This document shows, in pieces, positions 4,775-62,871 of a stretch of DNA of 64,000 nucleotides (position 1 is its first letter; each line of letters begins with the position of its first letter). This DNA comes from Escherichia phage FP43. The notes beneath the pieces were generated by a model that saw only the letters and a program-made list of their open reading frames with translations, was not told the DNA's origin and did not search any database. A program made the position numbers and the translations under genes. The DNA is taken from sequence record MN648445. One strand, given 5' to 3'.

Positions 4775-4780
4775 TAAAAA

Positions 4781-4800
4781 GGAGACTTCGGTCTCCTTTC
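4781..4800 (+). terminator. hairpin GGAGAC-TTCG-GTCTCC followed by short T run
   Basis: perfect 6-bp stem with TTCG tetraloop directly after gene 41 stop. Confidence 0.5.
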
Positions 4801-4862
4801 GGGGTTTACATCTTCCTCTAGGCATGATATGATGTACTTACACCAACCAAGAGGAAAACATT

Positions 4863-5237: not shown

Positions 5238-5288
5238 GTTTACTTCTCCAGTAGTTGTGTTATTATAGACCTATCAACTACTGGAGAA
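5238..5288 (+). promoter_or_regulatory. early-type promoter (GTTTAC 5238-5243, TATTAT 5261-5266) embedded in 14-bp inverted repeat 5244-5257/5275-5288
   Basis: sigma70-like -35/-10 spacing; perfect inverted repeat TTCTCCAGTAGTTG/CAACTACTGGAGAA with -10 in the loop; 5 nt upstream of ORF 5293. Confidence 0.6.
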
Positions 5289-5292
5289 CAAA

Positions 5293-5610
5293 ATGAAAAC
5301 CATCGATTGTAAAGCAGAATTTAAGATTTTTTATCACGGTTCAAGTAGTTCAGCTAACATCGAAAACATGCTTTGTCCTCCTGAAGAAACAGGAGTTCTG
5401 TCTGAAACCGGACGTAAGAAAAACTTGAATCGTGTATTCTTTACTGAAGATATCGGTTTAGCAAAGATTTATGCAGGACGAGCCGCACGCTCTTATGGAG
5501 GTGAACCGCGTCTCTATCGAGTAATTTCTCCGGTAGACGTAGTTCAAATGAATAATACTAAAGGTGCTACAGTTTATCACGCTGAATGGGCATTTTGCGA
5601 GGAAATATGA
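5293..5610 (+). CDS. hypothetical protein
   Basis: 105-aa ORF; stop overlaps dmd start (ATGA); contains YHGSSS ... YAGRAARSY ... YHAEW stretches. Confidence 0.6.
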   Translation: MKTIDCKAEFKIFYHGSSSSANIENMLCPPEETGVLSETGRKKNLNRVFFTEDIGLAKIYAGRAARSYGGEPRLYRVISPVDVVQMNNTKGATVYHAEWAFCEEI

Positions 5611-6549: not shown

Positions 6550-6584
6550 GTTTACATTATAGATGGACTATAGTATAGTAGTCC
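6550..6584 (+). promoter_or_regulatory. early-type promoter with short stem-loop (GGACTA/TAGTCC)
   Basis: GTTTAC 6550-6555; inverted repeat 6565-6570/6579-6584 spanning the -10 region; upstream of sp. Confidence 0.5.
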
Positions 6585-6608
6585 TATCAAATCAACTAAG
6601 GAGTTAAA

Positions 6609-7772: not shown

Positions 7773-8240
7773 ATGGGTATTATTAACACTGCAATAGATT
7801 CAGTTTATGCATATAAGTTTATTCGACTAATGCAAAAACCTTTTACCGAATGGAAAGCGTACGAAGCCAAAATCATCGACGAACGTGGAAGTGTTCTTAA
7901 ACGTCCTTCCACTCCTGAAGAGAAAGCGGCTTATACACCTTTTCATGCTTCAGTTCGTTCAATGAAGCGAATGATGAGTACTGTTCCAGGTCTTAATGGA
8001 ATGGCCTCAATGATGTCTGCCTGGAGTGCCGTAGCATCCCGCTATAACATTACAGAAGAACAACAGAAAGAAATATTTAAAGAACTCCCTTTATTTGAGG
8101 ATATGGTTGCTGGTGATTCAGGTGGCAGCCCTCAAGCTATTGCATCAGGAACAACTACAGGTGCAGTCGTAAATAAAGGTCCAGAACAAATTCCTTCCAA
8201 GAAAAGAAAGCGAATTAAAGTAAATATTAATAAGTTGTGA
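7773..8240 (+). CDS. hypothetical protein
   Basis: ATG 7773 preceded by AGGAGG; Lys/Arg-rich C-terminus. Confidence 0.6.
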   Translation: MGIINTAIDSVYAYKFIRLMQKPFTEWKAYEAKIIDERGSVLKRPSTPEEKAAYTPFHASVRSMKRMMSTVPGLNGMASMMSAWSAVASRYNITEEQQKEIFKELPLFEDMVAGDSGGSPQAIASGTTTGAVVNKGPEQIPSKKRKRIKVNINKL

Positions 8241-12552: not shown

Positions 12553-12581
12553 TGTACAAACTCTACCGACGATGATACTAT
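12553..12581 (+). promoter_or_regulatory. early-type promoter
   Basis: GTGTACAAA with -10-like GATACTAT. Confidence 0.45.
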
Positions 12582-12609
12582 ACCTTTATCAACCACAGGA
12601 GAAACCTAA

Positions 12610-13218
12610 ATGTTTATGCCGTATAATGAATGTGAAATTGAGGAAATGGTTCGCCGTGCTCAATGCCCTGAATATCAAGATGAATTGCAGTACGAAATTG
12701 ATAGTCAATTCAACGATAATGAACAAAGCATCCTTTGGCAGTGTATGGAAAACAAGCCAGACTGTATTCAACAGGAGTTAAGTTCAATCGTTCGTAGAAA
12801 TTGGACGTCTTCAGTTCCTGAGACAATGTATCGTGGAATCTCTAAGAAAACTATGGCCACACTCGACGATAAAGATGTTGGTAGTATTATTAAATTTGAT
12901 AGAGTAATGAGCTTTAGTCCAGTGTTCGGTGTAGCACGTAACTTCGCTTCATATAATTTTTATGGAACATTTAATATGTTCTGCATCAAAGATGCACCAT
13001 TTGCTTTCAACTTCCGTGAACATATGCTTAACATGATTCTGGCTGCGCCATCTTGTGAGTTCAATGGAGCTTTCCCTGAAGCGACAAGACGGTCTAATGC
13101 TAGACTTATATCTGACGAATGCGAATTTATGCTCCCTATAGGGACTACACTGCGTGTAGATTCTATTATTCAAGATGGACGTTATACAATCTGGAATCTG
13201 TCTATTGTCGGTTACTGA
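12610..13218 (+). CDS. modA: ModA/ModB-family ADP-ribosyltransferase (second paralog)
   Basis: shares ILW-x-C, MYRGIS, SFSP and ECEFM motifs with the preceding ORF. Confidence 0.55.
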   Translation: MFMPYNECEIEEMVRRAQCPEYQDELQYEIDSQFNDNEQSILWQCMENKPDCIQQELSSIVRRNWTSSVPETMYRGISKKTMATLDDKDVGSIIKFDRVMSFSPVFGVARNFASYNFYGTFNMFCIKDAPFAFNFREHMLNMILAAPSCEFNGAFPEATRRSNARLISDECEFMLPIGTTLRVDSIIQDGRYTIWNLSIVGY

Positions 13219-16433: not shown

Positions 16434-16463
16434 GTTTACAACCAAGGATGGTTGGAGTATAAT
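16434..16463 (+). promoter_or_regulatory. early-type promoter cassette with 5-bp stem (CAACC/GGTTG)
   Basis: GTTTACAACCAAGGATGGTTGGAGTATAAT; same cassette as at 16990 and 63887 with compensatory stem changes. Confidence 0.6.
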
Positions 16464-17939: not shown

Positions 17940-17990
17940 GTTTACTTCTCCTCTGGTTTTGATATTATAACCATATCAACCAGAGGAGAA
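17940..17990 (+). promoter_or_regulatory. early-type promoter (GTTTAC 17940-17945, TATTAT 17963-17968) inside 13-bp inverted repeat 17946-17958/17978-17990
   Basis: perfect stem TTCTCCTCTGGTT/AACCAGAGGAGAA; loop carries the -10; right arm contains the GAGGAG RBS of ORF 17995. Confidence 0.65.
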
Positions 17991-17994
17991 TAAT

Positions 17995-18519
17995 ATGTTA
18001 GTTTACCGCGTAGAACGTAGTTTTTGTACTCAACGTGAATCATTACCAGGAATTGTTATCGAAGACGGTAAAGCCGTCAGAATTTGGGAAACCTCTTGGA
18101 ATAAAGAACCTCGCTCACCTTACGGTTGGTCTGGCACTGACAACTCTGAAGAAACATGGGAGTTCCTTGATAAGCATGGAATACTCTCAGGTAACTTCTA
18201 CCATCACGGCGACAACTATAATGTCCCTAATCGTCCTACAGTAAATGAAGACAAACTTCTTGAACAAAATATCTTAAGATACCATAGAATTGAGTACACA
18301 TTTGAATTGAGTGAAGATTGGGCTCAAGGGTTCTATTTTGGATTTGAAAGCGTTGACGCGGTTTATGCATGGTTTGATGACCAGGTGGATGTTGAACTCT
18401 TGAAAGCTAAAGGATACTACATCGCGGTCTATGAAGCACCTGATTTCATCCTCGGAAGTTGTCAATTAATGTTTAGACGTTCATTGGCAGAACAAGTTGA
18501 TTTTATTTTGCTAAAATGA
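17995..18519 (+). CDS. hypothetical protein
   Basis: 174-aa ORF. Confidence 0.6.
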   Translation: MLVYRVERSFCTQRESLPGIVIEDGKAVRIWETSWNKEPRSPYGWSGTDNSEETWEFLDKHGILSGNFYHHGDNYNVPNRPTVNEDKLLEQNILRYHRIEYTFELSEDWAQGFYFGFESVDAVYAWFDDQVDVELLKAKGYYIAVYEAPDFILGSCQLMFRRSLAEQVDFILLK

Positions 18520-27144: not shown

Positions 27145-27181
27145 GTTTACAACTAAGTAGGACTATGATATAGTAGTCCTA
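27145..27181 (+). promoter_or_regulatory. early-type promoter with 8-bp stem (TAGGACTA/TAGTCCTA)
   Basis: GTTTAC 27145-27150; inverted repeat 27158-27165/27174-27181. Confidence 0.55.
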
Positions 27182-27200
27182 TCTAAAAGAGGATAACATC

Positions 27201-27656: not shown

Positions 27657-27694
27657 GTTTACAACAAGGTAGGATTATGGTATAGTAGTCCTAC
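27657..27694 (+). promoter_or_regulatory. early-type promoter with stem-loop
   Basis: GTTTAC 27657-27662; GTAGGA/TCCTAC arms 27669-27674/27689-27694. Confidence 0.5.
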
Positions 27695-27714
27695 TGAAAC
27701 ATGAGGAACACAAA

Positions 27715-27915
27715 ATGGCTAAGCTTTTTAAAGATGTTGAAATTGGTGAAAAATTTGTTCTGAATAATGGTCAGCAGCTTATTCGTGTAGCTTCTATCGC
27801 CGGACAAACTCATAACTGTATCGCCCCAACGTGTTGGACTCGATTCTTTATTGAAGATGACACTGAATGTTTAACTGTTGAAGAGCTTTTTGAACGTTCT
27901 GATATAGCCGAATAA
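27715..27915 (+). CDS. hypothetical protein
   Basis: 66-aa ORF. Confidence 0.5.
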   Translation: MAKLFKDVEIGEKFVLNNGQQLIRVASIAGQTHNCIAPTCWTRFFIEDDTECLTVEELFERSDIAE

Positions 27916-27917
27916 AA

Positions 27918-27954
27918 TTGTACAAACTCTTGAGAGCAGAGTATAATGCTCTCA
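27918..27954 (+). promoter_or_regulatory. early-type promoter cassette with 8-bp stem (TGAGAGCA/TGCTCTCA) around TATAAT
   Basis: TTGTACAAACTCTTGAGAGCAGAGTATAATGCTCTCA; near-identical cassette at 56649. Confidence 0.6.
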
Positions 27955-27992
27955 TGGATTACAAAAAACATTAATCAATTGAGGAAATTAGC

Positions 27993-28439
27993 ATGTCCAA
28001 ATATTTAACTCGTAAAGACCTTCTGGCAGTTGGCGGTGAAGTTGTTGCAGTGGTTCGTAACGGCGAATACGGTTCTGAAGTTTCTAAAGAGTTTCGTTCT
28101 CGTGAAGGTTTTTACTTCTTTGTTAAAGGTTCATCTGATTGGCGACAAGTAGCAGCACGATTCTTTGTAGGACGTCAACGTTCTAAACAAGGGTTGGATG
28201 CAATTCTTTCTCACATTCGTCAAGGCCGTTCGCAACTAGCCCGTACCATGGGTACTAATAATATTGAATATGACGTAATCTTTGTTTCAGCCAAGAACAT
28301 GAAACCACTGACCACTGGTTATGGTAAAGGTCAATTGGCTCTGGCATTCACTCGCAACCATACATCAGAATATCAAACACTCACTGAAATGAACCGTCTT
28401 CTGGCCGATAATTTCAAATTCATTCTGCAGAGTTACTAA
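27993..28439 (+). CDS. ndd: Ndd nucleoid disruption protein
   Basis: 148 aa; SKQG ... LSHIRQ-x-RSQLART ... [13 protein letters not shown] ... ADNFKF match recalled T4 Ndd. Confidence 0.75.
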
Positions 28440-47276: not shown

Positions 47277-47313
47277 TATACAAAAAGATAGGACTATGTT
47301 ATAGTAGTCCTAT
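47276..47313 (+). promoter_or_regulatory. early-type promoter with 9-bp stem (ATAGGACTA/TAGTCCTAT)
   Basis: GTATAC 47276-47281; inverted repeat 47288-47296/47305-47313. Confidence 0.55.
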
Positions 47314-47337
47314 CAAAACAAATGAGAGGAAATCAAA

Positions 47338-47700: not shown

Positions 47701-47737
47701 TATACAACAGAGTAATGGTGTGATACTATTACTCTGT
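47700..47737 (+). promoter_or_regulatory. early-type promoter with 10-bp stem (ACAGAGTAAT/ATTACTCTGT)
   Basis: GTATAC 47700-47705; perfect inverted repeat 47707-47716/47728-47737 with GATACT in loop. Confidence 0.6.
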
Positions 47738-47765
47738 CAAAACAAATGAAGCAACGGAGAATAAA

Positions 47766-56434: not shown

Positions 56435-56649
56435 CTAAAGAACAGCATGAATACATTAAAGGGCTTATCTATGAATCTGAAATGGCGGCTATGATTTATG
56501 GGCGCCAGATTCAACGATTAGAATCTTTGCCTCCGACTAATGACCGCTTGTTAGTTCAGTCTCGTGCTAATCTGAAAAATGAATATCAGAATAAGTGGGC
56601 AGTAGCGACTAAAGCTCTTCACGAGTATATTGAATCTTTAGTAAAATAG
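56425..56649 (+). CDS. hypothetical protein
   Basis: 74-aa ORF. Confidence 0.5.
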   Translation: MPMTKEQHEYIKGLIYESEMAAMIYGRQIQRLESLPPTNDRLLVQSRANLKNEYQNKWAVATKALHEYIESLVK

Positions 56650-56684
56650 TTTACAAACTCTCAGGAGCAGAGTATAATGCTCCT
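56649..56684 (+). promoter_or_regulatory. early-type promoter cassette with 7-bp stem (AGGAGCA/TGCTCCT) around TATAAT
   Basis: GTTTACAAACTCTCAGGAGCAGAGTATAATGCTCCT; paired with the 27918 cassette. Confidence 0.6.
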
Positions 56685-56706
56685 ATGGATAATTGAGGAA
56701 ATCTAA

Positions 56707-57005
56707 ATGAAAACATTACTAGAGAATTACATCAAACGGTCTGATGAGTATATTGATATCTGCCGTGGAATGTCACTTGGCAATTATGACAAAGATGCAG
56801 CAAAGGCACTAGATGAAGCAGGTAAAGCTCTTCGTAAAGCTGCTAAAGAAAAAGGGTTGGATTTGCAACAACTCAAAAGTCATATGATTAAATTTATTTC
56901 TTCAAACGTTAGAAGTACGTCAATTAATAAAAACGTTGCTGAAATTAATAAAGACCGGCGCGAGCATAACATTCGTATTCTTGAAATTTTCTTAGGAATA
57001 AAATA

Positions 57006-58774: not shown

Positions 58775-58813
58775 GTTTACAACATGGTGGAGTTGTGATA
58801 CTATAACTCTACC
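58775..58813 (+). promoter_or_regulatory. early-type promoter with 9-bp imperfect stem
   Basis: GTTTAC 58775-58780; arms GGTGGAGTT/AACTCTACC with one mismatch. Confidence 0.5.
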
Positions 58814-58832
58814 AACAAATGAGGAAATAGAA

Positions 58833-62800: not shown

Positions 62801-62842
62801 AGTTTACTTTGGTACAGGTTATGTTATTATAGACCTGTACCA
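62801..62842 (+). promoter_or_regulatory. early-type promoter inside 11-bp inverted repeat (TTGGTACAGGT/ACCTGTACCAA)
   Basis: GTTTAC 62801-62806; stem 62808-62818/62832-62842; TATTAT 62824-62829 in loop. Confidence 0.6.
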
Positions 62843-62871
62843 ACAAACAACTTAAACATCTGGAGAATAAA

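Follow-up and report, generated by a model that had tools for sequence, protein, structure and literature searches.

Conserved sense-strand pairing in stem-loops that span two early promoters of a Mosigvirus-type phage genome

The 64,000-nucleotide stretch of Escherichia phage FP43 analyzed here (MN648445; hereafter the window) contains, on the + strand at 27918-27959 (site A) and 56649-56690 (site B), two copies of an intergenic cassette in which a sigma70-type early promoter is combined with a stem of 7-8 bp, the 8-nt loop of which carries the -10 box. Comparison with copies from related phages gives good support to the view that selection for sense-strand pairing maintains this stem. Judged by the parts that can be read in their sequence, both sites are members of a class of element already described in T4-type phages, the promoter-early stem-loop or PeSL (Arbiol et al. 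2010, PMC2839356), an identity that the earlier note on this DNA had missed. With moderate confidence, we read each site as an early-promoter cassette of the PeSL kind, whose stem would act in RNA reading through from the upstream gene and whose shared sequence would serve as a patch for exchange.

Mosigvirus (RB69-like, T4-type) genomes match the window at about 98% identity. Its + strand is the direction of early transcription and runs through dda, dexA, motB, 39, rIIA/B, denB, ndd, 52 and motA, the same order continuing on that strand to 32, frd, td and the pseT region. Each site lies between two same-strand genes. Site A occupies a 77 nt stop-to-ATG gap between a small ORF, with a CDS annotation at the corresponding position of NC_031090, and ndd, which is annotated in relatives as encoding an Ndd-like protein; site B occupies a 57 nt stop-to-ATG gap in the pseT/Rz region. 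The 42-mer quoted for site A in the earlier note spans 27918-27959, and the end assigned to it there, 27954, is the final base of the stem, 5 nt before the end of the quoted string. The TAA stop codon of the small ORF (27913-27915) stands 3 nt 5' of the -35 hexamer of site A, TGTACA (27919-27924), which the promoter scan scored at 10/12 with a 17-nt spacer to the -10 hexamer TATAAT (27942-27947). The 5' arm of the 8 bp stem, TGAGAGCA (27931-27938, columns 23-30 of alignment A1), falls within the promoter spacer at about -23 to -16; the loop, GAGTATAA (27939-27946), takes in bases 1-5 of the -10 hexamer; and the 3' arm, TGCTCTCA (27947-27954), is made up of the last T of that hexamer and the discriminator. 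Standard sigma70 spacing would place the start of transcription at A27954, 7 nt past the -10. A match to the RegB/S1 consensus, GGAUUACAAAA (27956-27966; 6/7 positions after GGAN, with U rather than G at position 4), is followed by the Shine-Dalgarno GAGGA (27981-27985) and the ATG of ndd (27993-27995). At site B, also on the + strand throughout, the TAG stop codon of the upstream gene (56647-56649) abuts the -35 hexamer TTTACA (56650-56655), which scored 11/12, again with 17 nt to TATAAT (56673-56678). Its stem has 7 bp, formed by AGGAGCA (56663-56669) and TGCTCCT (56678-56684) around the same loop (56670-56677), and the eighth position, C56662/A56685, is unpaired; A56685, the base directly after the 3' arm, is the predicted start. 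A weaker RegB-consensus match, GGAUAAUUGAG (56687-56697, 5/7), overlaps the Shine-Dalgarno GAGGA (56695-56699), and the ATG lies at 56707-56709. The combination of the Shine-Dalgarno TTGAGGAAAT and an ATG is found at both sites and throughout the family.

The earlier note had singled out the two sites as look-alike cassettes that differ by paired changes, and this description is borne out: both strings are on the + strand and agree at 35 of 42 positions, a likeness far beyond chance. Four of the seven differences form two compensatory pairs, namely, a G-C at 27932/27953 that is A-U at 56663/56684 and an A-U at 27933/27952 that is G-C at 56664/56683; one breaks the outermost pair, which is T-A in site A and C.A in site B, and two lie at the -35 flank. 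A pattern of 25 specified bases, with five bases of the 5' arm left free, matches both sites at 0 mismatches, detects no third site in the window at up to 3 mismatches, and has no match in any of 100 dinucleotide shuffles. When folded as RNA, the 33-nt hairpins of sites A and B reach -13.7 and -12.0 kcal/mol (z = -3.8 and -3.1 versus shuffles). A covariance model of the family, run over the window, returns these two as the only strong copies, at 73 and 69 bits. The next-best matches, at 11-18 bits, are members of a second hairpin family, TAGGACTA-tgNtatag-TAGTCCTA (6551-6600, 27146-27195, 27658-27705 and 47277-47325, all +), which agrees with sites A and B in the position of its arms and in its 8-nt loop but has different arm sequences and TGn-TATAGT as its -10. 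Taken from the two window copies alone, the evidence for covariation is weak; with 25 distinct copies from relatives it becomes strong.

These relatives are numerous. Matches occur in 692 GenBank phage records (∼1,250 places) from Mosigvirus, Tequatrovirus and related genera, with up to 4 matching places per Mosigvirus genome, and in T-even phages the genes downstream of the cassette are of at least 12 kinds. Across the family, the -35 is T(T/G)TACA, followed by a 17-nt spacer and TATAAT, and almost all copies have a TAG adjoining the -35. In the T4 genome there is a single family copy, TTTACAAACTCTTGGGACCAGAGTATAATGGTCCCGTGGAGTATAAAA, upstream of motB; it is the T4 motB early promoter (PMC1702504), which belongs to the same cassette family as sites A and B. 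The motB homologs in the window have a promoter different from the T4 motB cassette, and the window's family members serve ndd and a pseT-region gene and carry GGAU where T4 motB carries GGAG. A scan of IMG/VR viral contigs for TACAAACTC-N9-GAGTATAAT, which leaves both arms free so that they are unbiased, gave 38 copies. A looser IMG/VR pattern, GTTTACA N14 GAGTATAAT, hit mostly unrelated contigs and was kept solely as a negative control for arm complementarity; with this hexamer pattern and another spacer, 91 of the 92 among the matches listed have no more than 3 contiguous pairs. The covariation alignment consists of 25 distinct cassette sequences, and the RegB comparison below uses 31 variant cassettes.

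In the 25 distinct cassettes, 97% of the cells of the 8-pair helix are in standard pairs, as compared with 36-55.5% after a shift of the 3' partners by 1-3 columns, and none of 500 shuffles matched either the observed pairing or the covariation score. Double-sided changes are present at five of the eight pairs, with six pair types at pair 28-41, and the arm combinations include GAGAGC/GCTCTC, GGGAGC/GCTCCC, GGGACC/GGTCCC, GGGGTC/GACCCC, GAGGAC/GTCCTC and GAGAGA/TCTCTC. RNAalifold independently predicts the same helix. The proposal in the earlier note that selection acts on the hairpin itself, beyond the promoter hexamers, and the check suggested there, covariation over aligned copies, are both upheld by this alignment; uncompensated substitutions, which would have had to be as common as in the loop for the proposal to fail, are rare, and those inside the stem are all G.U wobbles. 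The original PeSL papers described such stems without testing them; the demonstration given here is statistical and spans many genomes.

The kind of wobble tells on which strand the pairing is selected. Over the 25 copies, every non-Watson-Crick cell inside the stem is G.U or U.G when read in the sense orientation and none is A.C, with G.U making up 10% of the stem cells. Pair 24-45 is G-C in 15 copies, G.U in 9 and A-U in one, which is site B, and the G.U state of this pair precedes the homolog of site B's gene in L032. The second hairpin family adds three further one-sided changes in relatives, again all G.U wobbles (TAGGATTA, TAGGACTG and TAGGGCTA). We take the occurrence of G.U without A.C as a sign that the sense strand pairs with itself; in a cruciform, A.C mismatches would be present on the opposite strand, which argues against that structure. 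The wobbles fit RNA and non-template single-stranded DNA alike, since single-stranded DNA also allows G.T pairs. A reading as a palindromic site for a protein on duplex DNA was considered and rejected: the arms vary freely while their complementarity is kept, and the wobbles appear in the sense orientation only.

Complementary arms could in principle arise with no selection on structure, by template switching in a quasi-palindrome or by gene conversion between copies. Template switching, a kind of mutation reportedly first described in the quasi-palindromes of T4, yields paired changes in a single event, and the cassettes clearly recombine. We nevertheless hold this origin to be very improbable, because one-step templated correction predicts perfect Watson-Crick arms, unlike those observed. 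Many different stems keep 97% pairing over at least 12 loci and several genera, and the frequent G.U intermediates, with stepwise G-C, G.U and A-U states and no A.C state inside the stem, fit single substitutions filtered by RNA-type pairing.

The position of the arms relative to the promoter bears on which molecule could contain the stem. The 5' arm lies wholly in the promoter spacer and the 3' arm covers about -7 to +1, the predicted start falling at or just after its end, so that the promoter's own transcript would lack the stem; the leaders predicted for the two own transcripts, up to the start codon, are unstructured (-0.8 and 0 kcal/mol). The hairpin had been described in the earlier note as part of a leader RNA, and this part of the description does not hold. 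That the stem is real and selected in the sense strand would suit a structured leader of a transcript from the cassette's own promoter, but with the whole 5' arm upstream of the -10 hexamer, the start placed by sigma70 spacing at the last base of the 3' arm, and the own leaders predicted to be unstructured, we give this reading almost no credence. The hairpin would instead be found only in read-through RNA from the upstream gene, where it would lie ∼15 nt past the stop codon of that gene, or else in sense-strand DNA. No usable mapping of start sites or 3' ends at the cassette sites of T4 and RB69 was found in literature searches. A leaderless mini-ORF beginning at the ATG of 'cATGGAT' was also considered and rejected; this ATG is not conserved, the family having ACGGAT, CTGGAG, GTGGAG and TTGGAT at the same place.

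A stem just past a stop codon invites comparison with a terminator. A U-run follows the stem in neither window copy (tails AUGGAUUA and AUGGAUAA) and, by eye, in none of the 25 distinct copies, and a terminator scan called neither site on either strand. A canonical intrinsic (Rho-independent) terminator was rejected on these grounds, and the stem is probably not an efficient intrinsic terminator; the missing U-tract also makes the terminator role claimed for PeSLs doubtful for these cassettes. When the window was searched with the curated covariance models of Rfam, no family reached its gathering score anywhere in it.

We also considered that the selected structure is one of DNA, either a non-template hairpin or a cruciform with the -10 in its loop, which would tune initiation or stimulate recombination between cassettes. 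Two families with unrelated stems share an identical geometry (about -23 to -16, -7 to +1 and an 8-nt loop), DNA hairpins tolerate G.T, so that the wobbles do not separate RNA from sense-strand DNA, and a crossover point in an RB49 PeSL was mapped inside the loop (PMC2839356). Such a role seems improbable to us all the same. A cruciform requires pairing of both strands, and the 10% of cells that are G.U would be A.C on the other strand; the 5' arm remains duplex in the open complex; and the shared geometry follows from the promoter positions that are free, given that the -10 is fixed and that a TGn or G-rich element occupies -15 to -13. Nor is a stem of 8 bp with an 8-nt loop well suited to extrusion from duplex DNA.

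Further early promoters of the window have their stems elsewhere (compare PMC2839356), which also speaks against a DNA role. Among the promoter-like sites on the + strand, 10/31 have a stem that reaches from the spacer to just past the -10 or beyond, which is above the expectation from shuffled spacers. The position of the stem relative to the promoter boxes varies among the window's promoters, while its position relative to the gene gap is constant, and we therefore read it as an intergenic RNA element fitted into whatever promoter positions are free. Several of these promoters deserve description in their own right. Single-copy early promoters at 47701-47750, 58776-58830 and 62803-62850 (+) have 10-12 bp stems around the -10, with arms ACAGAGTAAT/ATTACTCTGT, TGGTGGAGTTGT/ATAACTCTACCA and TTGGTACAGGTT/GACCTGTACCAA, respectively (each p <= 0.006 versus shuffled spacers). 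Four others, with -35 hexamers starting at 16435, 16992, 54061 and 63888 (+), have a small stem wholly within the spacer and a GGA-containing loop, as in AACCA-agga-TGGTT, ATCC-aaggac-GGAT and CCACAA-gga-TTGTGG; the arms differ between copies with pairing kept, and the arrangement resembles the published 'between -35 and -10' subclass of PeSLs. At 4780-4805 (+), a canonical-looking terminator hairpin, GGAGAC-TTCG-GTCTCC followed by TTT, stands immediately 5' of a -35 at 4805, which gives that promoter the 'stem upstream of -35' arrangement.

The PeSL was originally described as a stop codon, an AT-rich tract, a sigma70 promoter, a stem-loop, a Shine-Dalgarno and an ATG, with five placements of the stem-loop, 'most commonly between -35 and -10 or overlapping the -10 box'; PeSLs are repeated in plastic regions, where the genes beside them are inserted, deleted or replaced among related phages, and were proposed to be sites of modular exchange; promoter activity, attenuator or terminator activity of the stem-loop and the formation of mini-circles were shown experimentally for RB49/phi1 examples only (PMC2839356). 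The concept was later extended to T4/PST and KVP40/nt-1, including exchange next to ndd (Comeau et al. 2014, PMC4122927). When sites A and B are compared with this description, both have an upstream stop codon in an A/T-rich tract by the -35, hexamers 17 nt apart (TGTACA-17-TATAAT and TTTACA-17-TATAAT; the T4-type -35 consensus is GTTTAC, PMC1524935), a stable stem-loop overlapping the -10, and a Shine-Dalgarno with a start codon at the 3' end. The element is also repeated, with two family copies and at least 8 other promoter-bridging stems in 64 kb. The two sites thus share with PeSLs the same order of parts, variable stems with G-T pairs, and the occurrence of many copies per genome between small early genes, where they mark module junctions. 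Differences exist as well. The geometry of sites A and B, with the stem around the -10, departs from the T4/PST figure legend, in which stems are 'just upstream' of the promoter (PMC4122927). The stems of RB49 PeSLs pair a G-run with a C-run, and one was shown to terminate, whereas those of sites A and B are shorter, lack a U-tract and are not terminator-like. PeSLs have been described in RB49/phi1, T4/PST and KVP40/nt-1, whereas sites A and B are in an RB69-like Mosigvirus; RB69 early promoters at such sites were predicted in 2006 with no mention of stems (PMC1524935). RB69-type phages, covariation and RegB are not mentioned in PMC2839356 or PMC4122927, so that covariation statistics and the RegB-type site next to the stem are both absent from the published work on PeSLs.

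Two other kinds of element use related DNA in related ways. In the promoter-coupled terminators of bacteria, the -35 is covered by a hairpin, the spacer is taken up by a T-tract, and transcripts terminate ∼10 bp before the start site (Fletcher et al. 2026 preprint, 10.64898/2026.08.19.745784). Sites A and B resemble these elements as dual-use DNA in short gaps between tandem genes, where a hairpin of the upstream transcript overlaps the downstream promoter; they differ in having their stem around the -10 and a spacer free of any T-tract, and so fall outside that definition. In T4 itself, the lysozyme gene e, soc and gene 49 have a promoter inside a hairpin, and their ribosome-binding site is hidden in read-through RNA; these classic cases involve late promoters. 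The logic is shared insofar as a promoter within an inverted repeat gives a promoter-started RNA without the 5' arm, but the Shine-Dalgarno at sites A and B lies 10-26 nt past the stem and is not sequestered. A closer likeness to gene e, soc and gene 49 is seen at two other places in the window, 5239-5300 and 17941-18000 (+), where early promoters lie in 12-13 bp inverted repeats (TCTCCAGTAGTTG/CAACTACTGGAGA and TCTCCTCTGGTT/AACCAGAGGAGA) whose 3' arm contains the Shine-Dalgarno of the next gene, so that the ribosome-binding site would be concealed in read-through RNA but not in promoter-started RNA. The Shine-Dalgarnos concerned also match the RegB consensus (GGAGAACAAAA at 5283 and GGAGAATAATA at 17985). 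The same promoter-in-hairpin logic, with the Shine-Dalgarno in the 3' arm, is found in T4 motB.2 (L149; NC_000866, about 8162-8224, minus strand), where the promoter spacer (TCCTCGG...) is complementary to the Shine-Dalgarno GAGGAUAAUAAAA and the site is one of only two GGAU sites reported to be cut by RegB in T4.

The surroundings of the cassettes bear traces of exchange. One upstream flank (U2) is joined to three downstream genes (D4, D5 and D8), ndd (D2) is found with three different upstream flanks, and site B's gene has two upstream flanks, its homolog in L032 lying behind a different one. In L032 and L019, flank and cassette are identical as far as the ATG, beyond which the two diverge.

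A feature that we add to the published description of the PeSL, as far as it can be read from sequence, is a RegB-type site beside the stem. In all 31 variant cassettes, GGA(G/U) occurs 1-2 nt past the 8-bp stem and is followed by an A-rich run, and at least 5/7 of the RAYARAA positions are matched in 26 of the 31. The target of the phage endoribonuclease RegB with S1 is GGAGRAYARAA, in which GGA is invariant, G is preferred at position 4, the site is single-stranded and the 3' part is A-rich (Durand et al. 2006, PMC1702504). T4 motB RNA is cut efficiently by RegB at GGAGUAUAAAA in vivo and in vitro and has served as a model substrate (PMC1702504, PMC3014915). This site directly follows the stem of the T4 cassette, and the adjacent promoter-spanning stem is not discussed in either of those two papers. 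In folding predictions, the mean probability that the GGA is unpaired is 0.25 in read-through RNA and 0.65 in the own transcript, and for T4-type copies the corresponding values are 0.02-0.06 and 0.93-0.99.

These facts raise the possibility that the stem and the GGA(G/U)/A-rich site form one unit, a two-part RNA-processing module in which the hairpin sets the access of RegB according to the origin of the transcript, the site being masked, or the 3' end protected, in read-through RNA and the site exposed at the 5' end of the cassette's own RNA. Two versions may be distinguished. In one, the CUC(U) of the read-through spacer would pair with GGA(G) and hide the site, so that only promoter-started RNA would be cut and inactivated; in the other, a cut 2-4 nt past the stem would leave the upstream cistron with a protective 3' hairpin. 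The constant presence of the GGA, its match to the published consensus and requirement for single-strandedness, the cutting of motB just after the T4 stem, and the predicted difference in pairing between the two transcripts are all in keeping with such a module, as are the two extra pairs, 20-50 and 21-49, that RNAalifold adds, and the fact that only 8 sites in 64 kb match the consensus as well as this, two others of which lie inside the 3' arms of promoter-bridging hairpins. We nonetheless think the module unlikely. The extended helix CUC(U)/GGA(G) is predicted by folding, but its columns C19, T20, C21 and G49 are invariant and lend no covariation support, C19 remaining unchanged in copies with U at position 4 of the site. 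Both window copies match well downstream (6/7 and 5/7 positions at sites A and B) but are GGAU, a form rarely cut in T4, where RegB cut 2/30 intergenic GGAU sites (PMC1702504); a GGAU site of RB69 is also reported to be cut by RegB. Site B shows no difference in accessibility of its GGA (0.35 versus 0.22). The AACTCT half-spacer also occurs in a promoter that has neither stem nor GGA, and the second hairpin family has the same geometry and no GGA, which makes its stem independent of RegB. Were the module real, each mobile cassette would carry its own control of mRNA lifetime, specific to the origin of the transcript.

We note the positions of these further sites for reference. The eight sites with GGA(G/T) and at least 6/7 of the A-rich RegB positions are at 5283, 10479, 17985, 19854, 27956, 47756, 62419 and 62862, which is all of them in the 64 kb, and hairpin-type early promoters are found no more than ∼60 nt upstream of at least five of them. 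The promoter with the half-spacer is at 12553-12610 (+; TGTACA aactct...TACTAT). As it shares AACTCT without a GGA site, this segment is best regarded as family sequence and not necessarily as an anti-GGAG element.

In the reading that we prefer, that of a PeSL-kind cassette with a stem for the upstream message, the order of parts is an upstream stop codon, a strong sigma70 promoter with a stem around its -10, GGA(G/U) and an A-rich run, a Shine-Dalgarno and a start codon. The arms would occupy the two least constrained segments of the promoter, the distal spacer and the discriminator, leaving the -10 in the loop, and RNA from the cassette's own promoter would begin with the final base of the 3' arm. 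In the upstream message, the hairpin would then serve as a structural element near the 3' end, where it may attenuate or pause read-through and may shield the upstream cistron from 3' exonucleases. As a result, neighboring early cassettes would be insulated from one another, and the promoter-started RNA would stay unstructured and translatable. The ∼60-80 bp cassette, common to otherwise unrelated flanks, would at the same time provide a patch of homology for the exchange of gene modules among T-even phages.

Assigning the stem to the read-through RNA of the upstream gene narrows the roles that it may have. The association of such a stem with the proven RegB site of T4 motB bears on how tightly packed early genes of these phages may be insulated and switched off. 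For annotation, our analysis suggests that, in T-even-type phages, near-identical intergenic repeats of 40-80 bp should be regarded as PeSL-type cassettes and likely recombination junctions, and not as new RNA leaders.
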